Of a DNA stretch of 64,000 bases, positions 11,180 to 60,144 are shown piece after piece. Within the stretch, counting starts at the first letter, position 1, and each line of letters opens with the position of its first letter. Source of the stretch: Minutocellus sp. GHC0000111 (taxonomy: Eukaryota); NCBI GenBank assembly GCA_977018835.1, contig OZ361256.1:2914001-2978000 (forward strand). Direction: 5' to 3'. The position numbers and the translations under genes were made by a program. Below the pieces are notes generated by a model. The model was not told the DNA's origin. It searched no databases and saw only the letters and a program-made list of their open reading frames with translations.

Positions 11180-11488
11180 CGTTGATGAGTCGCTGGACAA
11201 AAATGAGACCAGCAAACACGCACGAGACGAAGATCGCGGCTCAAGAAGGGGTTTCTTCGACGCAAACATGACGCATACACGTACGACGGCCAGATGAAAT
11301 TCACTCCGCGAGCACAGCGAGCGAGCGGCGGCGGCGTCCAGTCATCGTCAGTCCAACCACACCACACCAGTCCGTCCAAGGGCTCGTCCGTCCAGTCCGT
11401 CCACTCGTTCGAGGCCGAGAGTACTGAGTAGTGACCGACCCACAGGCATCTTGAGCAGCATGTGCTATCGCTCAACAATAACAACACA

Positions 11489-12760
11489 ATGAAACGGAAT
11501 GCAATCTCCGACATCAACACATGTGTTCAAGTGGATGTGACTGTCCCAGTGCACAACGCCTCTGAAACGATAAGGGAGACAGTCGAGTCAGCCCTGAATC
11601 AATGGATTCCAAAAACACTGAACGGTTCCTTGCCTTCCGAGGAGGGCATCGATTGCCTATCCAATATTGATATCGATGTTGCAGTGTGCTGTCACGACGA
11701 CGGATCGATGGATGAAAGTCTGAAAATGCTGGAGGAGATGTCTGTGCAGCAGAAAAGTGATGAAACAAAAGCCGCAAGCACATCGCCACCGGTGGGGGCA
11801 TCGAGAAGAATACGTACCCGTTTGCTCATTGGAACCAACGCAGATGGTGTGGCAAGAGGTGCTGGACATGCCCGAAACAGAGCCACAGAGCTGCGCGCTC
11901 ATGATGACGGCCCATCTTGCACTCCAACGCCACCACCATTGTCGTGTCTTTGCTTGCTGGATTCCGACGACACCATGCACCCGTTCCGAATAGCAGAACA
12001 GTTGAATGCGATGACATCCATACCAGAGGGGGATGACAATCGACGAGAACGAACTTTGACAGGATGTGCGTTCGACCGAACACCGGCTGGATCAACTTGG
12101 CACTGCTCCGAATGGGCGAACGGACTGAGTGATGAACGTTTGTTGTTGGAACGACACAGAGAGGCAACATTGCTACAGCCAACGTGGTTCCTTTCCCGAA
12201 CGCGGTTTGAGGAACTGGGTGGACACATCGAGGCACCGCACCCCAACACATGCACTGCAGAGAAAAAATTCTCGGAGAAACACAGTTCTGGGAAAAATGA
12301 AGATTGCGAACGCAGATCGAGCAACGAAGAAGGCAGCAGCAGGCGACATCGTCTGATCCATGCTAAGCACGACACGCCCCACACTCTCCGTCTAGCGGAA
12401 GACTTGCGCTTCTTTCATGAGCATTTGCGCGCTTCGGGGGGCTTGCTCAAGCTGCACCGAACAAGCCAGCCCCTGGTGACGTGCCGCCACAGGGCTGGAC
12501 AGTCGCAGAGCTCTTCCACTCCACGGAAGCTGCTGTTGAATCTGTGAGTTGTGGCATTCGAGGACAGCATCCTTCGGACCGATCCGCGATGGGCTGACTC
12601 CAACTTTGTGATGTGGGGAGCTGGCAGGGACGGAAAAGATTTCTTCAAGTCGCTAAGTCCTGATCTACGGGGGAGGGTGAGATGCTTCGTGGACGTCGAC
12701 GAGAAGAAGATTGCCGCTGGGTTCCACGCCAACCGCGATCTCGGCATCAAGATTCCCACA
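11489..12760 (+). pseudogene. QTGAL: Hypermutated, truncated GT2 glycosyltransferase of the B3GNTL1/QTGAL (queuosine-tRNA galactosyltransferase) type
   Basis: VPVHNA, DDGS, CLLDSDD, QPTWF, AEDLRFF, WGAGRDGK, FVDVDEKKI. In-frame TGA at 12545-12547, no Tyr codon in the whole frame, and homology breaks at KIP (12757). Confidence 0.85.
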
Positions 12761-15092
12761 ACAATTTTGCGCCCGAGGAGAGAGACAGATAGCATTGGGA
12801 TAAGTTTATGCAACAATCAACCCGACAAAGGGACTTTTTGGTCTGGGAGATAAATGGGTGAGTTAAGAAGGACGTGATGTGTTTGTTTGGGTGTGCTGTT
12901 TACTTTTTTGCTCAATCGCGATGCTGTTTGTAAAAGTTGGACTGTGCAATTCATTTGTTGTTGTGTAGCAGCAATGTAATTTCATTTTCTAATTTTACAC
13001 ATGCCCTGCTCCCATCTCTACATCCTCATCTCCATCGGTGGCCATCATGATCATTTTTGTTGGCGCTTGTCATCAGTTTCTGCTTTAACAGCTTCGGTCC
13101 TTGTCCTTTTCCTTGTTCTTGCCACCCGAGAGTTTCGCTCCCGCCTCTCCTCGACCTTTGGATTGGATGCCCTCTCCTCAGCCTTGAACTGCGCCGTCTG
13201 TTGGGCCTCATGTCCCTTGACGCCCTGAGTCCGACGATCTTCCTTAACGCCCTCTTGGTGGGCTCGCTCCACAAACGATTCGTCGAGCCAACAGATGCGC
13301 CGCCCCATCCATTCTTCACTAGCCAAATGTGTTGGTCCAAGATGTGATCTTCGAGTAAGTGCCACTTGGCCGTCATGCTAATGCCGATTGCCCGTGCTTG
13401 CTTGAGGGCACTTGCAATCAATGCTTCAAGCTCTCTCACAGCCTTCTTTGCCTCATCATCCCATTTCATGTGCCATTTCAGAAACCTGGAACACATTGCG
13501 TCAAGAGTGTGGAGCAAATTAGAGCAAGCTTTGCAGAGCTCTTTGATGTCGTCATCCGTCATGCCATCTTCCTCGCGATTGTGCTCTAGGAGAGTTCCTT
13601 TGGTGGAGGTGTTGTGGTGGATGAACTCTGTTGTCCTTGGTTTCTTCTTGTTGTTGCCATCAGAAACATTAACAGACAAAGCTCTCCTGCACTCTGCCAG
13701 CACTGCCCTTGTTTTACCTGACTCGGCCGCCTCAATGCCGGCCTTTTTCAGGAAATGGAAGTGAGGGGCATCGTCATCCTCGGCATCATCATCGACAGCT
13801 CCCATCTCTGGCTCGCCATCACCGTGCTTCTGACGACTCTTCTCAAAAAGTGCTGCTGCATGCATGCTTCATGTGTAGCGTCCTCTCTTGCAACATCAGC
13901 TTCGTCCTCATGACAGGGCACACAGTCCTCGTCTTCGTCGTCATCGTCCTCACTGATCTCGCCGGCCTCCGTCGTGGTCAGGGTGCCCACCGTCCCAACA
14001 TCGTCGTCATTGTCCCACCCATCGTCCTGGCCATTGTGCCCACCAGGGAGCTTCTGGGCCTCGAGCAACATCTGCCTGTTGATTTCGTAGTCCATCGCCG
14101 CATGTCCCACCGATGCATGTGGTGCGACCGACTTGAGGAATGCATCACATGCCTTCGTCAAATTGAGCCGCGGCGGCGGCATTTCGAGGCGAAGTTGTTG
14201 CTCGACCGTGACCATGTCGAAAGCCATCCATCCATCACCATGGAGAGCGTCGGCTGCACGAGGATTGACAGAACCGAGGCGAACAAACATGCTCTTTTTG
14301 CATGGGGTTCGCTGAACGTCGTCGGCAAGGCAGTGTCTTGACACCATTTCATCCCATCCATTCTGGTTGTCTGTCCTCTCACAAAAAACACATCGCAGCA
14401 GCAGTCTTCGTGTTTCTTCTTCTTCAAACCCAAGATGCCGCCGCCGTGCATGATGGGACTGCATCCCAACACATTCATCAAGGAGTCGTTGTTGTTGCCG
14501 ATGAAATTGTAGTAATGAAGTTCCTTTCTGCGAAGACGGACGAGCAGTTCAGCCAGGGCGTCCTGCACCGCAACTCTGTCTGTGCTGTCTGCGGTGTTGA
14601 CCGCGGGATTGCGGCCGTTATTTTTTTTGCTCATGGAGAACTGTGGATCGAGACCAACGGGAACATCACCAGGATGTCGGGAGTACCTGGTTGGTCTCGT
14701 GCCGTAATTCTCCCACACCAGCGCGAGATGTCGCCTTCGTTCTGCACGGTGGCTCGCGTTGGGCGCGCCGGTCGGTTGCTTCGCGCGCCGGCCGGCCACC
14801 GAAAGTGCGACCAAAAGTATGTGAGTCATCCGGCTGGCAGATGGTGCTGTGGTTGGGCGCGCCGGTCGGTTGCTTCGCGCGCCGGCCGGCCACCGAAAGT
14901 GCGACCAAAAGTATGCGAGTCATCCGGCTGGCAGATGGTGCTGTGCGGTGGCGGTTGCGCGAACGGTCTGTCCGTCCATCAGAAAAGACGCGAGGGGGAG
15001 CTGCTGCATGCATGCTTCCTGCCGCCCTGCGGCATTTTCTGTGGCAGAGAACAATGAAAGCCACCTCACCGCCTATGACATAGCAAAATCGT
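12761..15092 (-). mobile_element. Decayed, internally deleted DNA transposon with a Transib/Chapaev/RAG1-like transposase C-terminus
   Basis: Minus strand reads ISMTAKWHLLEDHILDQ...G (frameshift) LDESFVERAHQ, i.e. HxxxxH followed by the last catalytic Glu. Possible 10-bp imperfect TIR acaattttgc (12761-70)/gcaaaatcgt (15083-92). No TSD seen, so boundaries are tentative. Confidence 0.6.
14758..14945. repeat. 94-bp tandem duplication (2 copies, 1 mismatch)
   Basis: 14758-14851 vs 14852-14945; the only difference is tatgTgagt vs tatgCgagt. Confidence 0.95.
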
Positions 15093-15135
15093 AATCAATT
15101 GTCTATCTTGCATTTACTTGCCCTCTATTGAAAAC

Positions 15136-17107
15136 ATGGCAACCCCCACATTGGCTTCGGACTCACCAGAGATACGATCAGGGAAGAACCAACAAAGCAA
15201 CAAGCGACGAAGAAGTACGACGATGACAGCATCGTTCTCCAAGCTTGGTGCACCTTCGGTTCTGCTGCTCATGCTGTTGATATGGTCGACCCCATCGGCC
15301 CACGCATTTACACAAAACTTGGCACATGGGCACGGCTTCTCGTCACGGTTATTCTCAGAAGCATCGTCAGAGGATGCAACTCCACAACCAGCACAAGATG
15401 TGTCCAAAAAGAAGCAGAAGAAGAAGAAGAGCAAACGAAGCGTCTCGTATGATCTTGGCTCGGGCCAGAACAAACCTTTGGATCATTTGCGGAAGAATGC
15501 TGCTGGCAATTCTACGGCCGATAGTGATTCCATAATAAGTGGGTTGAGCTACGTTGATTTCTGGGGTGCGGGATATTCACAGGACAGTCGTTCAGGTTCA
15601 CAAAAGCCACGGATACCAAGTGCACCTCAAGTGTACGACAAGAGCAGCAAGCAACCGAATGGCGACGATGACAAGACGAAGTCAGCGCCAAAGAAGAAGA
15701 AGACGGCCCGATATGATTTGGGAATGAACAAGAATTCTCCAATTGTGGCCGGTGCCGAGCGACGTCGGACTCGGAAGCTCATTGCCAAGGGCGACGATGG
15801 GGAGTTCCTAAGTCGAGCCACTGGAAGCGGCGGGACGACGTCCTTGTCTGGTTTGAGCCGCGTGGAGAAGGGCAAGGATGAGCCGAAAAGGTCAAGATCT
15901 GCGAAAGCAACAGCCGACGACAAGACGGGAGAGCGGCTTCCGCATCGTGTGGACAGTTGGGATGAGATTGAGGATGATACCAAGAGCAGCGGCCTGGTCG
16001 GTGCGCATATCGATGGTGGCTCAACTGATCCGTCATCAGTGCCTTCTACAAAAGAAGTTGAGGGCGACAAGTCTCTCCATGAACACCACGTTGACGATGA
16101 AGCTGTGGAAGCAGCGGCCTCGGCATATGTGAATGCACTACTGCATGAGGAAACCGACATTGATGATGCCGAAGAGACATATTCATGAGTCGACAAGTAT
16201 CTCTTCCAGCAGCGACGGACCTGTTCCCTTTGAGGATATTGACCTTTCAGTGCCCCTTTCTGTCTATGATCCGGACAACAGCATAGATCTGGTGTGGGAT
16301 TTGATGCGCTACGAAGCCAACGAGGAGGCAATCCGTGAGCCCATTCTGGTCAGTTTCCTGCATTCCACCATCCTGAACCATCCCACCCTCGAATCAGCCC
16401 TGGCTTTTCATCTCGCCAACAAGCTCTCAGCTCCGGCCATGATTGCCACCCAGATCATGACCCTCATCAAGGAGGCTTTGGATGCCTCACCGACATTCCG
16501 CCGAAGTTTGAGAGCAGATATCTTGGCAGTGAGAGATCTTGACCCGGCATGTGAACATCTGCCGGATGTTTTTCTTTATTTTAAAGGATTCCACTCGCTT
16601 GAGAGCTATCGCGTTGCCAACCATCTGTGGAAGACAGGACGAACCACGCTTGCTCATTATTTGCAATCTCAGGTGTCGCAAACCTTCCAGATTGATATCC
16701 ATCCAAATGCGACCATTCTCGAAGGCGTGATGCTGGATCATGGAACCGGCATTGTGATCGGCGAAACGGCGCAAGTTGGTCACAACTGCTCCATATTGCA
16801 CCACGTTACGCTTGGCGGATCTGGCTAGAAGGGCGTCGATCGTCATCCCAAGGTAGGAAATGGAGTCCTTCTCGGCGCCGGATGCTCGGCTCTGGGCAAC
16901 GTTCGTTTAGGCGACGGATGCCAAGTTGGTGCCGGGACGCTCGTCATCGAGGATCTTCCGGATCATTCCGTCGCCGTTGGTGTACCGGCCCGAGTGATCG
17001 GTACCTTTGTGGACGTAGCGACGCAGCCAGCGAGAAATATGAACCAACTGGGCAGCAAGGAAAGTGACGAGATGATCCAACTTACCTTTGAGTCGGAGGG
17101 TATATGA
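15136..17107 (+). CDS. cysE: Serine O-acetyltransferase, probably plastid-targeted, with a long N-terminal extension; disrupted in this sequence
   Basis: EPILVSFLHSTILNH, DLDPAC, YFKGFHSL, IDIHPNA...LDHGTGIVIGETA...HHVTLGGSG*KGVDRHPK. Frameshift near 16185, in-frame TAG at 16826-16828, presequence SAHAF. Confidence 0.88.
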
Positions 17108-30100: not shown

Positions 30101-31099
30101 TGTGACTTTTGTGGTTGTTCGCTTGGTAAATGCAATATCCTGGCAATGCAAGTGCAGTGGCCGCAGATGCCGGTCCGGTTCGGTCAGGTATAAATTATTG
30201 TCGTCGTCAAGTCAAGTCAGGCTATACCGAGGAGCAAATGTATGGTCCAATCCCGGTCAAAAGGCTTGCCAATCCAATGCCCACGTTGCAATTCCGCGCG
30301 GCAAGGCCTTTCGCTGGCCGTGGAACGCCAAATCTCTATTTTTGGGGCGGACTGTACCGAGTGAGACCGACCGCCCCACGCCAAAATTCAAAAAGCGGCA
30401 CACGCACGAGATGTGTCGTTTTTTTTTCGTTTTCACTCTCGCTTGGATCTAATCTCCCCGCTGGAAAAAAGATACCGCGGCCAAAAGTAAGCAGAGGTGC
30501 AATGGTCACCGCCAACGGGTAGAGTTTGAGCTGTGGTGGTGGTGGGGGGGTATCCTCCAGAACGGTTGGTACGCACACTTGATGCCCTCCGCTCTTGCCG
30601 ACGAAAAATGAGGCGCCGCGTGACGGCAACGCCGGCGCGGCGTCGCTGCCGTCACATGCCAGGGGGGGCCAAGGGTCCGCGAGCGCGCGCCGGCGCGCCG
30701 GCCCCCGCCAGGAATTGTGATGCTATGATGACGAGGCGGAAACCCTGAACACATCAAGCAGCATGAGAGGTAACATGGAGAAATGGGGTGAAGTTCCCGG
30801 GTCATAACAATTTTCATGAACGGAGAAAAATCAATGATCGAAGCGGCACAACCCCAAAACACCCCCGAAGATAAAAAATGTTAACAATGCAAACAATCGC
30901 ATCTTCCGCGGCAAATTCACAGAGCCTACACAGTGTTTCCTCATCGTCTTTTGCTAGCTAATTGTTTTGGCCCCGCTTCACCTTTTTTCTCTGCCGAATG
31001 GTTGTTTCCGAATTTTTCGCGCGCTTCTGCTGAAATTTTCGAGGCGCCGGCCATGCTGAAAAATGCACCCGTCACATGCTACATGCTGCTGCTAGCAGC

Positions 31100-31876
31100 A
31101 CGCCAAGATGAGTCTGCCGTCTCATGGTGTTTGCTGTCGGGCCACACTCTCAAGCCAACCTCTGGCGAGGAGTGTGCCGGACAGTCTGGTCCACGATCTG
31201 TCCGCGACGCATGCCTCCGAGTTCCAATCGCTTTTGGGTGCAGGGGCTGACAGTGATGCCGTCTTCGCTGCAGCGCCATGGATGGTCGTTCACGTCAACG
31301 CGGCCGTCCACCTCTTCCATGACGGCCCTGCTGTGCTGGTCACCAACAACATGTGTGGCCTGCTGCCAAATCTCGCCTCAGGAGGACTGCGCATGCATCC
31401 TCGTCCATGGCCGGGTGGCATGCATCGGTCCCCCTTTCGGAGCAACCCACAATCTGTCGCTGGGTGGCGTCGAAGGCACACAGTGAATGAACACATTCAC
31501 ATTCTTAAAAAGGCATGAGCACTGTCCCGAGCACCACTGCAATCCACGGAAAAACAAGAACCGCAACAGCAGGCAAGCGTTCTCGTGCTTCCGACACAAA
31601 TGACACTCTCCGTCGCCTCCACTCCTTTGCACAAACTTTTGGCAAAGCGAGAACACTCGCCAGGCCTGACGGTCATGTCCTTCCTGTCAGAGGGATTGGG
31701 GAGACAGTCATCATCCAAATCGTCAGCAGTTGCGTCGATGAATGTGCCGGATTGAACCTCCACACAACATAGTCCTAGGGCTTCCCCAGCCCCCGCAGCG
31801 ACTGGTCGGCTCCCGAAACAGCCGCAGGGAGGGAAGCGAAGAGGGCGAGAGAGGTGAGCGTTGCGTCGAGCTTCAT
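31100..31876 (-). pseudogene. Decayed gene for a secreted Cys-rich protein inside a TpA-depleted tract
   Basis: Signal-peptide-like MKLDATLTSLALFASLPAAVSGA followed by broken Cys-rich frames. The 3' boundary is approximate. Confidence 0.4.
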
Positions 31877-32043
31877 GATGATGACAATGGCGGCGGCGAA
31901 GTGTTTCAAGTGCAAGAAACGAGCGAGAAAAACGTGTGAATGAATTTCTGGGAAAAGCACAGAGTTGGCACTAGCACCCGCGGTAAAGGAAGTGTGCAGT
32001 CAAAGCACAAAGGGCGCAAAGTTGTTGGCTTCAATTTTCATTG

Positions 32044-32129
32044 CGCCAAAATTCGGATGCCAGTGAAAGAGTTTCTGAGGATGACGCGTTCCGTCGCAAA
32101 CACGCCAAAATTCGGATGCCAGTGAAAGA
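32044..32129. repeat. 27-bp direct repeat x2
   Basis: cgccaaaattcggatgccagtgaaaga at 32044-32070 and 32103-32129. Confidence 0.9.
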
Positions 32130-33207
32130 AAATGATGTGTTTCGGGAAACTGACGTGTCGAGATTCCAATCGCTGGGGCAATTCTCTTTCTCAGTGGGAT
32201 TAGAGACTGGTCGTTTAGCCGCCAGTGTGCGGCGAAAAAGCATCTTCCCTGTCATGCGGTGGCCGCCTTCACAACTTCATGTACCACTTCCACCACGTTA
32301 CCACAAAACGTACAGCGATGAACTCACCCAGCGACACTTCTGGTTCTTCGACTGCTGCCGGTGCTCGCCAAGCCGAGGCTGCAGCAGCCGCCGCTGTTCT
32401 CCAAGCCGATGCCGCCGCCGGCGCCGCTGTCTTCCACAGATCTGCCACTAACAACGACTTTGGCACAATGTCTTCCAAGAGGCCTAAAACAGATGACACC
32501 GACGGAGGACACTCTTCTTCGTCGTCCTCCTCGTCCTCTGCGTCAACCTCTGCAGGAGACCCCGTCCCCGTCGCTTCCATCCTCCGCAAAGCCAAGAGGG
32601 CAACCGAGTCGGCACCGTCGTACTGTGGCCGGCTCAACGACGAACCTCGCCGAGGCGCCTACCACATTAAATTTGCGACTGAATTTCTCCCGGATCTCGG
32701 CCTTGACATGATTGACAATGAATGACAACGAATGACTGCTTCTCTTTATCCACGTATCTGACTATCTATCTGTCTGTCTATCCACCTTCTACTCGTGCGA
32801 GTAGCACCGGTGTGATTCGACCGATGTGATTCGTCAATATTTGGGCTTCAATCAGACATCGGGAATTTCATCTGAAGAGCTCAATCTGCTAGGCGTGCAA
32901 TTTCATGAGTACCAGATAGATCAAAAAAGAAACTAGCGAGCTATATTAGAGTATTTGCATGATGCATATACCGCATGTAACAAGAAAGCAGGTCAATTCC
33001 CTTTCTAACCAACATTTCATTAGTCACTTTGCTTTTTTTTTAATTTAGAAGTACTAACTTTGGACTGGAAGCCGTGGTAGATCTAGTGCAGTCTCTTCAT
33101 GCATCATCTACCGGTAACAACATGATCACACTTCTGTTCAGCGAAGCTTACAAATCCTCTAGACATCGTCGTAGTCGAATTAGCCGTATAAGCACAAAAA
33201 ATTTTAA

Positions 33208-48094: not shown

Positions 48095-48270
48095 TGTGCT
48101 AGCATGCATACAGTACCCGGCCGAGAAAAAAAGTTCAGAGATGGGCTGGCTCTTGGAGAGCGAATCTATCAAAATGAATAATGAGCTGGCAATCGATAAT
48201 CGGCCGCGACCAAGGTATGCATAATGACTTTACATAAGCCCTTGTTTCACTTTGGTCTGCGGCAACATCG

Positions 48271-50580
48271 TTGGTTCTAGCGCAAGAGGCGCTGGCGGGG
48301 TGGTGGATATTTACCCTGTGGTCATTGTCGTGGATGACAATGACGTTCCTGACATGGCGCACGGCCATGCAAGGGGACGTGGACGCGCACAGGCTGTGGG
48401 CGGAGGCTTTGCGTCGGACCGCACTCGCGTTTGTGTTCGGACGCGTCCTTCTGGCGGCCTACTCGTACGTGCTGTGGCTGGCGTGTGATTTCTCAATAGC
48501 CGACCACTCAACCCATATCACGATTGCCTATACCTATGCCATCGCAGGTACAGCACTGTTGGCGCTGTCGTATACGTTGGTTTTGGCATTGCCGCGTGCT
48601 CGACTGGTTCAGCTGCCGGGGAAAGTTGACGCGTGGTGCAAAATGACCTTGGATGAAATCTTCCGCCTGATTATACAACAGGGAAGGGATAAAGGAATGC
48701 CGCCTATGACATCAACGCCAGATGGATCCTTGAGAAGCATTGGCAGTGCAATCGATGGAAATGGGGGCGGTGGAGTTAATTCTCATCGAAGTTGTGCGCA
48801 GGGGGCGCCGAGGTGGAAGCTAAGCCCGAGGATCGCCGGGAACGGTGGCGTTCTGTTTCTCCTTTTGCTTATAGCCTATGGCTGGTCGTTGGATAGGGAT
48901 TGGCTCCCTATCAATTGGTGTCTTGCTTGCACCATTGTATTTCTGGTTTCTCTTGGTGGCACTTACGCTGCCGCGGAGGGAATTTATTCGTACCTCAAGG
49001 TTCGGTGGGGACTCGAGAGGTCAGGAAAAAGGGAAGAATTGGTTGTGGGCATTCAGGTCATCTCCAATCTTCTTCTCTCTTGCGTCTTACTTCGATATGT
49101 CGTATTCAGCTCCTGTTTCTCCTGCATTGCTCACTACATATCAAATGAACGTGAATTCGGCGATTCATTCTTCGACAAAGACAGCACGCATGGCCTTTGG
49201 CGGCTTGTTTTTGGGCCCTCTGAGGGAATGGATGCTGATCCTGCCAATGAACAATGCCACACTTGCTTGGCATGGGCAGTGCGAACGATGCTCGTTGTTA
49301 CGAAGCTGTTCAGAGACGGTGGAGGAAACGGTGTCACATCTGCTGACTCGTCCGCTAATGTGCAAACTCGCCACGACCTAATCCGGTGGCACAATGATTT
49401 TTCCGTCAGAGAATCAAAGAAGTGCTTGCAAAGCAGCAGGGGGCGCTTGGTGGAAACTCTAGCTCAAGATGGTCTGGTATCAAGTTCCGATCTCAGGAAC
49501 ATACTCAATGATCTCCTTTGTTCTCCTGCATCCAGAGTGGACAGCCCTGACCCGGCTCAGTTTTTGGCTTCTCTCGAGAATCCTCGCTTTACTGGAGAAG
49601 AGACGAATTTCGTCGGCACGGGTGGTCTGAACATGAGCGACCTTCAATCCATTATGAGAGGCGACATGCTGAAAGAGCTTGGCCCAAGTGTTTGCTTTAT
49701 GTTACGATTTTCTCTCTTCATCGAGGAAGACTCTGGTAGTGAGCGTGCACCAATCAGCTCTGTTCTTGACGCGGTGTCGTTGATGAGTGAGACTGACATG
49801 CGAGCGCAGGATGCGGTTTTTGATTTTCCAGGGACGGTCATTGCGGGTCTAGGTAAGTCCTTCCTTTTGCTGATAATTATCACACGCAAATACACCTTTT
49901 AGATCAGATTTCTCCTGACAAGTCTTTTTGCTCATTCGACCTTGGCCCTCCATTTATCATTGCAGACCCCGACTTTGACATTGACGCCAAGCAAATGGGG
50001 ACAATCAAGACCGCCGTCGACGTCTTCACTCAGCTTCCATTCGAAGACGAACCTTACCATTTCCCGACAAGGCAGCATTGTCTCGCTTTCTTCCGCTGGA
50101 CACTCGAAAATATTATCCAAGAAGACTGGCACTTCCCGCGCTGGCTTAACAGTGTGAACGGAGGCGATGATTGCAGGTTGTTGCTCTCAGAGCAAAAGAA
50201 GCTTTCTCCCAGTTTGACTACGTTTGAGGACCCACAGAGTGATGCTGCTCTCGGCGATCGATCTTTTTACGGAACCGGCCAAAGGTGCATGACCGCCATG
50301 AAGGTCCCTGGTGATGTCGACTATCCTTTTTCTTTTCCCGGCAATGCAAATTGTTACATCACGCGAAATCACACCGAGTTTTACCGACATGCCAACAAAC
50401 CTACATCGGAGGATCTCCTCAAGATGATCGAACGATTTTGGTCGGACAAGAGGCGCAGAAATGTTTTCAAGAAGAAGGGCAATCAAAGCATGGGATGGAG
50501 CTGCCGGACCGACGGGAGCGGCGACATGCTGGCGCATCAGCTGCGGTGGCAGCAGCAGCAGCAACAGCCATTTGCATTAA
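48271..50580 (+). CDS. Uncharacterised membrane protein (DUF2306-like TM N-terminus) with a soluble C-terminal region; both ends uncertain
   Basis: TM helices with GDVDAHRLW, intron donor gtaagt at ~49853, and a continuing coding-like frame from 49995. Confidence 0.5.
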
Positions 50581-52161
50581 CATGGTGTTGGATGCAGTGT
50601 TTTGTGGCAGTAGAGCAACAGTTTGCATGTCGGGTGGGTTGGAAATGAGGAAGGTTTCATTGAGTGGCGGGCGCGCCGGGCGGGTGATGATTTTTTTGGC
50701 CCGCTCGATTTTGGCGCGGGGTCACCCGGACCGCATGATGAGACACGCCATTGTGGGGACCATGGAGACCGATGTCGGAGCTCAAACCACATGGCTGCTT
50801 GAATCAATGCATTTGGGAGGTGGTGGTGGGGTCGGGAGGTGGAGGAGGTGACCAGTTGTCATCGGAAAAAATGGCAGAAGTCGGGAGGGGCGATGGATGG
50901 GGTGAATCGGCCAGACACTGGCATGGGAAGATGAAATCGACATCTCCGAGTCGGTCCAAGGTCAAGGACCAACCCGTTCTGGAGACACCACGCTTGTCCC
51001 TTGCGTGAAGCGGATGCCGTCGGCACTGCCGTCGTCACCGCCATCTTGAAGACAGGACGACAGCAAACAAATGCTGCTTGCTGCGTGCGTTTGTGCTGAT
51101 TTTTATGAGATTTTGCCCAAAGACCCGAAAACCGGGTCCCTGAAACTGCTGTCCGCGACCTCGCACACAAGCTAAATTTGTAGCTGAGGGCTCGGGCACC
51201 TCGAGCCAACTTTCGGTGTTGCAGATGTCGACGTCATGAAAGACATTGGTTTCTGTGTCGCTGCGTCATTCCGAAAGCAGATTCACCTCAAGACCGCGCA
51301 TCTTTTTTTGTGAGAGTCCCGCCGCGGTGTCGAAGGAACACTTCAGCACAGGGCCCTCACTACACGTTGGGTTGGATGAGCACGAGGGGAACGGAGATCA
51401 ACCCACACCCCTTCGCGTCTCTGGCACCCACAAGCTGCACCAGCTCCGAATTGATTGATTGGTTGCACGATTTTCGATCCGATCCGATCGCATCTTTTTT
51501 TCCCTTGAGCGCATTTGACATGCGTGGTGGCAGGCCGTGTTTCTTGTGGAAACATCTTCAAAGCGCGAACTCCGGTGGTGACGTGGTGACGCGGTGACGC
51601 GAATTCATTTTCGGGACGGACTGCTGGAACGCTTTTCTTCACACAATTTGCTTTGGGATTGACCAAGCAGGAGTTTGCTTCCTCAATCTCGACCTAGTCG
51701 TAGCGGTTCCGTGTGTTTTTGGAACAAACCGGCACATCTCGTGCCACGAAATTTTCGCGCGGCGCGGACGTGAGTGACGCACAAAACTCGAATTAGTCAA
51801 GGCTCGGCGGCATCACTAATCCAAGGCACCTTTGAGGACAGGATTTCCATCGCTTTGCGCGGGCAAAAGGGAGCTTAGATGACCGTGCTGTGTTGTGTTT
51901 CGTCCTAGCCGGGCATGTCGCACGCGCACGGCAACACAAAGCCAAACCAGTTACACCGCGCCGCGCGGGAATTCTTCTGTCGGGCGGGCCTGCCTGCTGC
52001 TGACGCGGTTGTCGTCTCTAGAGGATCGCAAGTGCTCCAGATCAGACACCTACTTGTTGGGAATGTGTCCTTGAATCTGATCTTGGAGATTCTTTGAGGG
52101 TTGATTTGTGAATCCATGTCTATCTTGGAAAAGAAGCCCCAACTCAGAAACGAATCGAATC

Positions 52162-54860
52162 ATGAGCAGCAGCAACAGTGCCGCGAACAACAGTCCGGCA
52201 GGATCCGACCAGGCCTACCTGGACATCATCAACGCGGCCGTTTCCGCCGCCACGAGCGCCGGGGCCGCCCCTCCGCCCGCCGCCAACACCAACCTGGCCG
52301 ACATGCAGCGGCGGTTGTCGTCCGATCTGGTCAGTGGCGGCAGCGGCAATGGCAACAATAACGGTGGCAACAATAGCAATAACGGAGCCGTCGCGGCCGC
52401 CGGAGCCACCGCCGGGCTGCAGCCGCAGCCCCGCTCGTCGTCCGTCGAGAGCTACCCCCTCAGCGCCGGGTCGAGCGCCAGTCCGATGATGGAGCCGGAC
52501 TTCTACGGCACCCTCAACGACGAGGACGAGGACGGTGCCGACGCCAAGCCCGCGGCGGCAGCAGCAGCTGCGCCCGACGGGGAGGTGGGGTGCGTCCGGC
52601 GCCGGATCGCCCGGCCCGACCAGCGGGTGCAGCGGGCCTGATCCCTCGGCGACATCGGCTTCGGCCCCGACCAGATGCAGCAGATGGGCGTAATGGGCGG
52701 GGGCACTGGCATGCCCCTGCCCCTGAGCGGATCGGCCAGCGTCGACGGGGCCATGGCGTTCCCAAGCATGGACTTTGGCACCCAAGGCGGCGGCGGCGGT
52801 GATCCCTTCGGACCGCCCCTCGGACCACCTCCGCCCCCCAACGCTTTGCCTCCGGGCAACATCGACGTCAAGCGTGTCGGCATTCCACGGGAGATTTGGA
52901 CATTGATTCCGACTTGGACGATTACGACATATTGGATCTGGCCCCCGCCTACGTCGGTTCCACCTCCGCGTCCATGTCACCGGACCTCTTTGGCATTAAC
53001 GCGTCCCAGTCCGGTGCCGCCACACCGTCGTCCGTGGCGTCCACCTCAGGCACAGCAGGCGGTTCCAACCAACCGTCGTGCCCAGCGCCGTCCCTCCGGC
53101 GACCCGACGACCAAGAAGCTCAGCAAGACCGTCCGAAAACGTGGATCGACCCTCAAGAAGTCGGGAAGCAACAACTCCCTCTCCAGCCTCGACGGGGCCG
53201 TGGCCCGTCTCGACGTCAGCACCGAGACCGGCAGCGTCGGCAGCCTCGATTCGCCCGTCGGGGCCGGGGCCGCCTCCTCGGCCAAGAAGACCGTCAAGGA
53301 CAAGAAGCCCGGAGCTGGAAGAAGCCCAAGGACAAGCCCAAGCGGCCTCTGTCGGCGTACAACCTGTGAGTGTGGTGTGGGTTGGGTTGGCTTGGGTTAG
53401 GGCTGTCTTTCTAGATTGCATCTGTTGGTTCCCATGCCTTACCTTGCACTTCTGTCGTCTCATTCAATTCCGTTCCTTTCCCTTTTCCGTTTCCATGTTG
53501 CAGATTCTTCCAGCACGAGCGGGCCCGCATCGTCAACGGCGGGGACGACGCCGCCGCCGATGGTGGTGCCGCTGCAGCCGCCGCCCCGGCTCCCGAGGAA
53601 CCGACGGACTCCGCCGGCGGCAGGAAGAAGCGCCGCCACCGCACGGCCCACGGGAAGATCGGCTTCGCCGCCCTGGCCAAGACCATCGCCGCCGGGTGGA
53701 AGACCCTCCCGGACGCCGAGCGGGCCGTCTTCGAGCAGCGGGCCGGGGTGGAGAAGGAACGGTACAAGCGCGAGATGGAGGTCTGGAACAAGGCGCAGAA
53801 GGAAAAAAGGGTGGCCGAGCAGCGCGAGCAGCTCAAGCAGTACCAGGAGGAGCGGCTGCGGCAGGAGGTGCTGGCCAAGCAGCAGCAGCAGATGAAGGTG
53901 CAGCAGATGATGGCCGCCCAGAGGCAGCAGCTGCAGAATTCCATGCGGGCCCAGGGCCATCCGATGCCTCATGATCAGATGATGGGCGGAGGCGGCGGCG
54001 GCGGAGGGGGCGGGATGGACCAAGTCCAGTCCAACCCGCAGATGCAGCAGCAAATGATGATGATGCAGCAGCAGCAGCAAATGGGCGACTCCATGTCCAG
54101 CCTCGGCGGGTCCAACTCCAACTTCGGCGGTGGATTCGGCCAGCAGCAAATGCAGATGCAGCCCCAGGCAGTTGGTTCAATGGGCGGCAATACGCTTCAG
54201 CAGCAGCAGCAGCAGAACAACGACATGAATCTTCAGAACATGAACATGAACCAAATGAGTATGATGAGCAGCAACATGCTAATGAACAACATGGGTGGCG
54301 GGCAGGCACCCCAGCAGCCTCAGCAACAACCGCAGTCAAGTCAAGATGAAATCCAGATGCAGCAGGCAGCCAAACTAAAGCAGATCCAGCAGGCCCAGCA
54401 GATCCTTCAAATGCAGGCCATGGCTATCAAGCGGCAGCAGCAAGTGCAAGGCGGAGATGGCGGTGGTGGTCAAAATGCTCGTCATGTTCCCGACAATCCC
54501 GAGTTTTACCAAGGCCTAATGAACAATTTCCAAGGTGCCGGCAGCGGGGGTCATCCACAGGCCCAGCAGCAGGCAGACCAAGGCGGAATGGGCAACGCCG
54601 CTATGCAGCAGATGGAAATGATGTCTCAGATGGGAAATTCCTCCTTCAACTCACTCGGTGGCGGAGATATTTCCAATGCCAATCAGCAGCAAATGCAACA
54701 GCAAATTATGCAGCAGCAAATGATGCAGCAGCAGCAGCAGCAACAGCAGCAGGCCCTCAGTCAATTTGGATATTTGTCTCTATGTTATCCATCCTCCGGG
54801 GAAATCTTTCATCTTCGTAGTGTCTGCATGTCGTTGGGTTCGTTACTTTTCGTCAACTAA
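52162..54860 (+). CDS. HMG-box transcription factor with a Gln/Met-rich C-terminus; frameshifts in the GC-rich 5' part
   Basis: WKKPKDKPKRPLSAYNL|FFQHERARI...HGKIGFAALAKTIAAGWK...EKERYKREMEVW; intron 53366-53503. Confidence 0.88.
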
Positions 54861-57286: not shown

Positions 57287-58716
57287 CTACCTTCGATTCA
57301 TCATGCCCGGCATTACGTACGATAACGCTTTTTTGTTATCATCCAACTTTTTCGCATTGTAAAATTGACCACCCGAACGACAGCCTGGAGAAGCATCGCA
57401 AAGCATTTCCATTTGATCCTGGTCTCTCGGAACCCAAAGTGACGGTCTGAGCCACATGTGTGAGTTGGCAACCCACTTATGAAATCTTTCAAACAAATTT
57501 TCCATATCATCTTCCGTCCACTCGCAAACCTCTTTCCAATCTTTGACTATGATGATGGGCACGTGTGCATCTATGTACATGGCGTCCAGTGGCGATGAAA
57601 GTACAATAGGAACCGTGCCAAAGAAAAGGTATTCCCAAACGCGAAATGTGTATCGTAGCCCACACCTACGGGCGCTATTGCAAATTGGTGGGAGGCATGC
57701 AACGGCCATATTTCCAGTGACCCTCCTTTTGGCATTATTCGGATTCTTCCATCGGGACATTTCTCCAAGGCCATCCTTGCCGCTTTCCTGCCCTTATCAC
57801 GCCTAGCACTAACCCCTAGTGTCCCGACATCATATAGAATAGAACGATTTCTCTCAGCAAAAGGTTTTGCGGAAAGGCGGAGCTTGTCCATGGCTTTAAT
57901 CGTGAATTCGCTATCGGGCGAACCAGGAAAGCCCCTTTGAATCGGCAGTCCAATTGGAACTGGGAACAGCTTGGTGTGGTCTTGAGCAACAACGTTGGTG
58001 CTATACCAGGCCTTGATTTGTTCTGATCGGAATATTTTCTCGGGAATTTCATGAGGTAGAGCACGTGGAACGTCCCAGTCTTCGTCAGTCGTGATGATGG
58101 TAATATTTCCATTCCCACATCTCGTGTTTGGTAGTATTTTGGCGACCCACTCTCTCAAGTCCCAAAGTCGAACCCAAATGATTCCACACTGATTTGGGGT
58201 GAAATAATTATTGAAATCGACCCTCGACAAGGGTCGTGCAACTGTTCCTTTTGCATTGTAGTAGGTAATCGGCCTCTTTTTGTGCGGCAAAGCAATGTTG
58301 TAGAAACCCCGATTCCAAAGGACGTCGAGCTTAGGAGTCATTTCATTGCATGGATGTGCGGATGTTAGCCACGGCTTCCAATCCCGGGCGTGGATTAATT
58401 TCCATTTCGCAGGAGCACTGTTTGCAATTGGTACCTTCCGTGTAGTGACACTGCCAGCGCCAATCGCTAATGATTCTTTGCGAACAATTGTTTCATTGAA
58501 ATAACCTGAGGCTGTTGGCCCTGGGTCCCCTTGACAATAGATCCATGGAGCTACCCGCAGCGTCGCATTGTGCAGCCTTTTCACATCGCGATGGAAAGCC
58601 ACGTGTTCGCAATCGGCCTCTCCATCAAGACCCTTGCCGTCATGCCTTGCTCCTCGGATCGCATTCATTCGGTGTACATCCCGAGCATCATAAAGGCTGA
58701 GTCCACGTCGAGCCAT
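57287..58716 (-). CDS. Exostosin/GT47-like glycosyltransferase domain (frameshift near 57650)
   Basis: IITTDED, AWYSTN, KLFPVPIGL, HQFAIAPVGVGYDT (shift) FRVWEYLFFGTVPIVLSSPLD..Y...PIIIVKDW. Confidence 0.7.
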
Positions 58717-58791
58717 TCTCCTGGGCGGAAAACTTGATCCATGTCCTTCGAATTCTTCACACGGTTTTGGCCCTTTCTTGGCCCAAACATG

Positions 58792-59463
58792 TTATGTGGC
58801 ATCCATTGAGGGGGTGTCGAAAGGCCCACAAATCCCAACACGGTTCAAAAAGGAAAAAGACGGCGTCCCAATTCTTCTTGTTGGAGGAACTGCGAAAAAC
58901 AGCCTCTCGAATGCATTGACGTCGTGTCCCAGGCTCATGTCCCGTCCGCCGCAGACACCATCCATGTCCGTCAAAATGACACAGTCACAGTCAGCTAGTT
59001 CTTCCTCGATGTAATCCAAAACTTTGTTTCGTGCCTTAGCTATTCGCTCGGTCCGACCGCCCTGTGCTTGGCCCTTTTCAAGGAGCAACGTTGCCCGGCT
59101 ATGGTTCCCAAGGAGCTCCTTCAGTGCCGCCCGAGTGTCGTCTGTCGAGTCGTTCTCGTAGAAAACGCAATGCGTCTCATGTCCAAGCGCATCGCCGAGG
59201 GCTTGGACCTTGGGGATGTGGGCGCGCAGATGATCACCTCCGACGTTGCGCATCACCCCGGAAATGACAATGCGTCGGGGCCTTCTCGTTTTGCGTGCAT
59301 TGCCGTGAAATGAAGAATGTTCAACAAACGAGCCCAAAAGATCGTGCAGAGCCTCACCGCCCGAGTTTGCCATCGAGCCGTAGATCATTAGAAACAAATT
59401 GCTGCATGTGGTCATCACAATGGCTAGACCCATGACCCGGATGAGAAGTAGTGGACCTTTCAT
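58792..59463 (-). pseudogene. Type II membrane CAP59/GT-A-like glycosyltransferase domain, partly TpA-mutated; probably the 5' part of the same multidomain gene as 57287-58716
   Basis: TM anchor after ATG 59463; VISGVMRNV, VFYENDSTDDT, RTERIAKARNKVL, DCDCVILTDMDG. Confidence 0.6.
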
Positions 59464-59488
59464 GTGTTGTTTGTGAACGGTCCGACCA

Positions 59489-59675
<187 letters not shown>

Positions 59676-59828
59676 GACGAGCCAAAGCTGAGGGATGCAC
59701 TCTTATGAGGAGGACATGCGGGGTGGAAAAAATTCAAGTCGACAATAAACGCGAGCAGTGTTGCAATTGCTGCTTATCGCTGCTTCGTTCGGCCGGTCGT
59801 TCACGGTTCGCGGCAACAGCACAGAGGC

Positions 59829-59848
59829 GAGAGAGAGAGAGAGAGAGA
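59829..59848. repeat. (GA)10 microsatellite
   Basis: Read directly from the sequence. Confidence 0.95.
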
Positions 59849-60144
59849 GGCGAGGGAGAGTCGCTCTTCGCGCGCTCGCTTTGACGATCGAGACTCACTC
59901 CTTTTTCGAATGCTTTTGCACTCCTCCAAACTAATAAATAGACAAAGTCTGTCAGCTTTTTGGAAATATGAGGAGTGTCTACTGGGAGGGTAGTCGGCCG
60001 AGAGTCAGTCGAGGCAATTGGTCGAGGGGTCTGTTTTACTTTCCGATGTGAGCACCTGAGACATGGTGGTTGACCGACCATAAGCTGTCTTGCATTGCTT
60101 AGCCAACTGAGATTAGATGTTCCCGTCGCGAAAGAAGGCCACAG

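Follow-up and report, generated by a model that had tools for sequence, protein, structure and literature searches.

Localised, flank-dependent loss of TpA in a RAG1/Transib-fold DNA transposon and an adjoining host gene of a likely diatom

A degraded high-copy transposon in a glycosyltransferase-2 gene

The window (the whole stretch of 64,000 nucleotides that was analysed) contains a single-copy glycosyltransferase-2 gene that is cut by a transposon copy lying in the opposite orientation. The named best relatives of the neighbouring genes are from diatoms, and the host is likely a diatom. The features of this region are as follows.

11462..12758, plus strand: promoter-side part of the single-copy glycosyltransferase-2 gene, which the element interrupts at 12758
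12759..14945, minus strand: copy of a high-copy DNA transposon, with its left end at 12759 and its right end probably somewhere in about 14945-15028
12998..14634, minus strand: transposase remnant of predicted RAG1/Transib fold, from the tblastn map
12023..14683, no strand: RTAY-free domain of 2.66 kb, which takes in the transposon body and, in the host gene remnant, its 3' part
13030..14500, no strand: TpA-depleted core named in the first-pass annotation, with 11 TpA, 7 of them YTAR and 0 RTAY
14684..14945, no strand: GC-rich 5' end of the element, in which three RTAY survive (14684, 14818 and 14912)

Summed contig depth in public run X1 is about 1e4 over the element and about 1e2 in its flanks, and because of this ~100-fold difference we assign roughly 12759-15000 to a high-copy repeat. 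The unique contig match ends at 12758, and family fragments sit on many Mb-size contigs as a dispersed multi-copy family. The transposase remnant lacks residues 329-900 of the full-length family protein P0130, which are deleted at about 13590, and carries frameshifts near 14395, 13845, 13297 and 13057; in frame, the window matches full-length family proteins at 88-95%. A structure model of P0130 (mean pLDDT 73) matches 45 PDB chains at E<=0.001, the best being RAG1 (E 1e-11), amphioxus BbRAG1L (E 2e-8) and HzTransib (E 9e-5), and among the matches listed all are RAG1, RAG1L or HzTransib. A PDB sequence-profile search gave only a weak RAG1L match (6b40, E 0.024) and otherwise coiled-coil noise, and Pfam gave no transposase family for the window frames or the full-length relatives, with DUF1280 in 3/23 of the relatives. 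The C-terminal region of the family proteins has conserved K-x-H, H and E-x3-E-x2-H residues. The depth, the tblastn map and the fold search agree with the first-pass description of a transposon body with a transposase remnant, and on the predicted model the element is an internally deleted, high-copy DNA transposon of the RAG1/Transib fold.

The Transib superfamily is described as comprising Transib, TransibSU, Chapaev and RAG1-like elements (PMC4411706). The full-length family protein is predicted to fold like the RAG1/Transib core, but it has about 10% identity to the solved members, and repeat and motif searches of the studied copy found neither a terminal inverted repeat pair (there is no partner of the left end near 14945-15030) nor a 5-bp target duplication. 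The right junction appears to be rearranged, because the 3' part of the host gene is missing; the window lacks the final 130 codons of that gene. Two metagenome scans for transposase relatives gave 12 and 78 pattern matches, with 0 confirmed.

Several smaller features of the element ends were seen. A 94-bp tandem duplication occupies 14758-14945 in the GC-rich 5' end, and at 14748 other copies have a short insertion of inverted-repeat character, seen as loose ends in X1, X5 and X6. In RNA run X6, one contig links telomere-like AGGGTTAGGG letters to the element end (12759-12790) and has a TpA there that is missing from the window.

TpA content of the transposon core

By direct count the core contains 11 TpA, present as TTAA (three), CTAG (two), CTAA and TTAG (one each), together 7 YTAR, and as GTAA (one) and GTAG (two), which are 3 RTAR, and TTAC, the 1 YTAY; RTAY is absent. 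The first-pass annotation had put the number at about a dozen, with none RTAY and most of them YTAR of the four words listed first, and the count bears this out. It had also called the transposase frames Tyr-free, which is nearly so, with one Tyr remaining in 442 codons (14087-14089) and two more just beyond the core at 14509-14514; the peptides it quoted, EDEDCVP and KGHEAQ, are present, and other copies read Y there.

As background we used the remainder of the window, cut into 78 overlapping windows that match the core in length and GC. The core has a TpA o/e of 0.14, against 0.36-0.76 across these GC-matched windows, which hold 10-28 RTAY (core 0) and 2-15 YTAR (median 6; core 7). Of 10 dinucleotide classes with strands pooled, just two fall outside the background range, TA on the low side and CA/TG with an o/e of 1.41 against a background maximum of 1.40. 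AA, AT, GC and CG lie inside it, and AA/TT (1.11; background median 1.08) and ApT (1.09) are undepleted. Expectations matched to flanks are 18.2 RTAY, 9.1 RTAR, 19.3 YTAY and 7.0 YTAR, against 0, 3, 1 and 7 observed. The probability of a total of 11 or fewer is 1.8e-12, that of at least 7 YTAR among 11 is 1.3e-4 and that of no RTAY among 11 is 0.010, and at least 7 YTAR without RTAY appeared in 2e-5 of 200,000 draws of 11 random background TpA, all of these values being flattered by the post-hoc choice of the stretch. The first-pass proposal had depended on an NTAN spectrum distinct from GC-corrected background, and with the rest of the window as GC-matched background the spectrum of the core does differ.

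Ancestral TpA and edit rates among family copies

Family fragments were mapped on the window at a threshold of at least 85% identity over at least 35 codons; 51 were obtained and one identical fragment was dropped, giving 50 plus the window. The ancestral TpA was readable at the 41 sites that were scored, and 8 of ambiguous polarity were excluded (14634, 14215, 14125, 14122, 14116, 14020, 13861 and 13631). Tyr and ATA-Ile codons are retained in some copies and are replaced in others by Cys or His, or by Met or Thr, the products of A>G on one or the other strand, and one site is resolved in opposite directions by different copies. DNA rows from public-run contigs (40 of 471 rows; 10 rows; short contigs), which serve as spot checks and not as rates, agree with this wherever they exist; rows from X1 and X5 show single ancestral TA steps that became TG in the window but CA in other copies, or vice versa (14037/14038, 14116/14117 and 14180/14181). 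Because copies keep Tyr or Ile at codons that read His, Cys, Thr or Met in the window, TpA was present in the family ancestor, and the family consensus is not itself TpA-free, a possibility that the first-pass annotation had named as fatal to its proposal.

Loss at RTAY sites was seen in 142/163 copy observations (74 coding-strand and 68 template-strand, both directions being visible) and at mixed-flank sites in 46/112. Expressed per edited strand, and at the amino-acid level, where silent changes are invisible, the copies are related and the YTAR sites are ascertained as window survivors, edits number 170/401 for RTAY (42%), 48/171 for YTAY (28%), 39/244 for RTAR (16%) and 3/128 for YTAR (2%, one direction visible). 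Omission of the window changes these values little (157/375, 44/160, 36/229 and 3/121 in the same order). Site-level Mann-Whitney comparisons place RTAY above YTAR (P=4e-5), RTAR (P=5e-5) and YTAY (P=0.02); the difference between YTAY and RTAR is not significant (P=0.06-0.08), and in the transposon taken by itself a 3' pyrimidine on the edited strand confers a weak advantage. The copy comparison shows RTAY to be preferred and YTAR resistant, as the first reading of the core had proposed, and adds that both flanking bases set the rate at which TpA is edited. A pure 3'-pyrimidine rule is insufficient, in that YTAY strands are edited less than RTAY strands. Strand bias is absent both overall (97 coding-strand and 91 template-strand events) and per copy, with both strands edited in 31/33 sequences having at least 3 events.

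The copies also have A>G changes outside TpA, many of them after A (N>S at 14508, 14493, 14035, 13838 and 13313; F>L at 14194, 14140 and 14050).

Mutation of the single-copy host gene

The protein P0143 is full-length, is 94% identical to the window glycosyltransferase-2 and has private residues in common with it, and is likely the intact allele of the broken gene; both alleles are present in run X1 at 12194-12377. There are 28 differences between the two in 432 codons, and three were dropped, namely the start call and two where the outgroups side with the window. The remaining 25 window-derived changes consist of 17 TpA to TpG/CpA, two of which are Ile>Met assigned by assumption, 4 other A:T to G:C and 4 CpG decay. 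A:T to G:C therefore accounts for 21/25, with 17/21 at TpA and 4/21 elsewhere, and a transversion is needed for none. The four that lie outside TpA may be background accumulated over time or reflect a wider specificity. Every Tyr (8/8) is changed to His or Cys, and the premature stop at 12545 arose by CpG decay. Diatom transposons have DNMT5-dependent CG methylation (PMC9998398), and CpG decay in the host gene is consistent with this.

With 4 silent DNA rows added, the lost TpA number 21 and correspond to 12 RTAY, 8 YTAY-strand edits, 1 RTAR-strand edit and 0 YTAR. Before 12022, 5 TpA were lost and 5 RTAY survive, all at or before 12021; after it, 16 were lost and no RTAY survives. The process thus extends beyond the transposon body, and by comparison of the alleles the TpA changes are shown to reach about 1.2 kb into single-copy host DNA, thinning with distance. 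Contigs of RNA run X6 span the element and the mutated host allele; they cannot report expression.

Other genes in the window

A lipoxygenase-like host gene (48241-50489, plus strand) is truncated at about 50489. Judged against references that are about 90% identical relatives and not an allele, it keeps 10/11 conserved Tyr at 48460-49135 and has lost 10/16 at 49390-50388, and the gradient of loss toward the break resembles that in the glycosyltransferase-2 gene. The gene downstream of the element (from 15079) is not hypermutated, since its differences from its other allele are mixed and RTAY is kept (14/33 TpA in 14946-16500). At 15029-15400 the other allele is unusually divergent, with 20 differences in about 285 bases, many transversions and replaced segments. 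An HMG-box gene at 53400-54200, within a TpA-poor tract (52900-54200), is GC-rich and apparently intact, and RTAY makes up 5/11 of its TpA; it keeps RTAY despite low TpA, and so low TpA alone is not the signature.

Origin of the TpA loss

The first-pass annotation had argued for an enzymatic rather than a compositional cause. Because of the family-copy and host-allele comparisons, the cause can be taken as shown to be mutational and not compositional, and these alignments describe a localised TpA to TpG/CpA process that acts copy by copy, on both strands and at rates set by the flanks. Its enzymatic nature stays an inference, since the flank preference does not separate a deaminase, an error-prone polymerase and a thymine lesion. 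An element that was TpA-poor from the outset, GC-biased gene conversion among copies, or codon usage would require no targeted process, and both the whole window (median TpA o/e 0.58) and the intact GC-rich HMG-box gene are TpA-poor. However, Tyr or Ile in some copies faces His, Cys, Thr or Met in others at the same sites, conversion would be neither TpA-specific nor expected to change 8/8 conserved Tyr of a single-copy gene, and the HMG-box stretch retains RTAY at 5/11 TpA. We regard composition, codon usage and gene conversion as excluded by the copy and allele comparisons, and as having scarcely any chance of being the cause.

We give an even chance to the conversion of TA steps by a candidate host DNA adenine deaminase, with predicted recruitment to silenced mobile DNA or chromatin. 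An enzyme of the TadA/ADAT kind would turn A into hypoxanthine, read as G at replication, and each copy would be attacked in repeated rounds. A chromatin- or RNA-defined domain would provide the targeting, which would be independent of repeat pairing because single-copy DNA is mutated. The near-exclusive transition spectrum, the intact AA content and the precedent of B. natans discussed below are in favour of a deaminase, and several non-TpA A>G changes that follow A are against it. The host gene (plus strand) and the transposase (minus strand) are convergent transcription units, and the mutated domain occupies the interval between their starts, beginning at that of the host gene and stopping just short of that of the transposase, 3 RTAY surviving in the element 5' end; overlapping convergent transcripts could, hypothetically, define it.

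The minor A>G changes after A, which occur in the copies and in the host gene, would be accommodated by error-prone repair synthesis, in which a Y-family polymerase (eta- or iota-like) fills the gaps left when methylated transposon DNA is repaired at deaminated 5-methylcytosine or at other damage, and inserts G against a template T, chiefly at TA and to a smaller extent at AA. Polymerase eta prefers the WA motif, which A>G after A would match, CpG decay co-occurs (4/25 host-gene changes), and repair tracts would suit the spread into single-copy flanks. Y-family error-prone polymerases usually yield a broader spectrum, however, whereas the 25 host-gene changes need no transversion and AA/TT keeps an o/e of 1.11 (background median 1.08) while that of TA is 0.14. 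The DNMT5-dependent CG methylation of diatom transposons (PMC9998398) would suit this repair process, but the reported GC-biased de novo mutations in Bigelowiella natans regions are all at TpA (bioRxiv 10.64898/2026.01.13.699255), and we consider repair synthesis unlikely, although well short of negligible. The lesion might instead lie in thymine, if TET/JBP-like oxidation marked T in the RTA context of silenced DNA and the modified base paired with G. Because TpA is palindromic, A>G and T>C lesions are indistinguishable in sequence: the two give identical data at TpA, and the RTAY preference is equally readable as T context. Nothing in the present data points to thymine, we know of no thymine-modifying activity of the TET/JBP-like type in diatoms, and we judge this origin improbable.

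Two other candidates were rejected. ApT is undepleted (o/e 1.09), which excludes ApT-linked 6mA, and editing of an RNA intermediate does not suit a DNA transposon whose single copies are mutated on both strands, nor a mutated single-copy host gene.

An adenine deaminase is our best reading and is preferred over the error-prone polymerase. A much broader proposal, which we put forward tentatively and think doubtful, is that diatoms have a DNA adenine deaminase, guided by RNA or chromatin, which reads the four-base word RTAY in duplex DNA and edits the whole interval from the host promoter to the convergent transposon promoter; it would be a natural adenine base editor, the mirror image of fungal RIP, and one that Rhizaria also have.

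Relationship to known systems

The closest parallel comes from B. natans, in which Mettrop et al. describe a hypermutation specific to TpA in the integrated DNA of NCLDV and virophages (bioRxiv 10.64898/2026.01.13.699255). As given in that report, de novo A>G/T>C changes in the integrated viral regions occur only at TpA, about 1000-fold above background and in some lines only; they were measured in a single-copy, silent region, and an ADAT2-like enzyme is proposed as an unproven candidate. Both systems have TpA to TpG/CpA changes on both strands, TpA depletion with a gain of CpA and TpG, and local domains of foreign or mobile DNA, and in both single-copy DNA can be affected; here the RTAY-free domain 12023-14683 overlaps the high-copy element and leaks into the host gene. 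The words diatom, flank, context and polymerase have zero occurrences in the main text of Mettrop et al., in contrast to the strong flank dependence found here, although their supplementary mutation table may show flanks. The host and target also differ, with a chlorarachniophyte and integrated virus there and a likely diatom, a cut-and-paste transposon and a host gene here, and unlike B. natans the present case includes CpG decay and, as a minority, A>G changes outside TpA.

The direction of change is opposite to that of fungal RIP, since here A:T goes to G:C and TpA is removed (o/e 0.14). In RIP, C:G pairs become T:A, chiefly at CpA, and new TpA arises. What the present process has in common with the RIP of ascomycetes is that mobile DNA is killed by dense transitions at a particular dinucleotide, that both strands are affected and that the changes spill over into single-copy genes nearby (PMC2621366); the available text of PMC7884421 deals with classical RIP indices only. 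Enzymes of the TadA/ADAT2 and ADAR types convert A to inosine, read as G, but their natural substrates are mainly RNA. TadA prefers a 5' U or T, and ADAR favours a 3' G, unlike the pattern here, in which TAG is among the coldest contexts. A 5' U or T is reported to be preferred by ADAR as well (bioRxiv 10.64898/2026.01.13.699255), and the available portions of PMC13101598 and PMC12398605 give nothing usable on TadA context.

A literature search, with subscription journals mostly outside its scope, returned no paper on a TpA mutator process in diatoms, and a genome defence of the A:T to G:C type has to date been published for a single alga, without a proven enzyme. We see the TpA mutator in this likely diatom as a variant of that recently described kind of process, here on a RAG1/Transib-fold DNA transposon and documented by per-site edit frequencies from copies and an allele-level control in the host gene. 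The TpA to TG/CA pattern is likely the fingerprint of a DNA-editing defence. The four-context ranking RTAY > YTAY > RTAR > YTAR spans about 18-fold raw, and more after saturation, and this ranked fingerprint offers a direct in vitro and genetic test for candidate enzymes; a natural DNA adenine deaminase, if true, would matter for base-editing tools. Leakage into host genes is a price of the defence, and it gives rise to pseudogenes in diatom assemblies. Stop codons are lost when TpA changes, so that dead genes retain long open frames and are annotated as real proteins, which carry His or Cys in place of Tyr.

Further RTAY-free tracts

The longest RTAY-free gaps in the window are 2819, 2663, 1712 and 1292 bp, the fifth being 436 and the median 57; the four longest all sit in four TpA-poor tracts, and the pattern therefore recurs within the window. 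The longest (2.8 kb, within 50111-52930) follows the break in the lipoxygenase-like gene. Another RTAY-free, TpA-poor tract occupies 30570-32282, and in a motif search 32013-32027 matched, inverted, the left end of the studied element with 1 mismatch to the degenerate motif; this is possibly the end of a related element. At 57571-59967 there is a broken minus-strand gene with a weak match to CAP59 mannosyltransferase, and the RTAY-free gap 58675-59967 adjoins a long (TG)n microsatellite at about 59490-59670, whose TG runs could themselves be derived from (TA)n.
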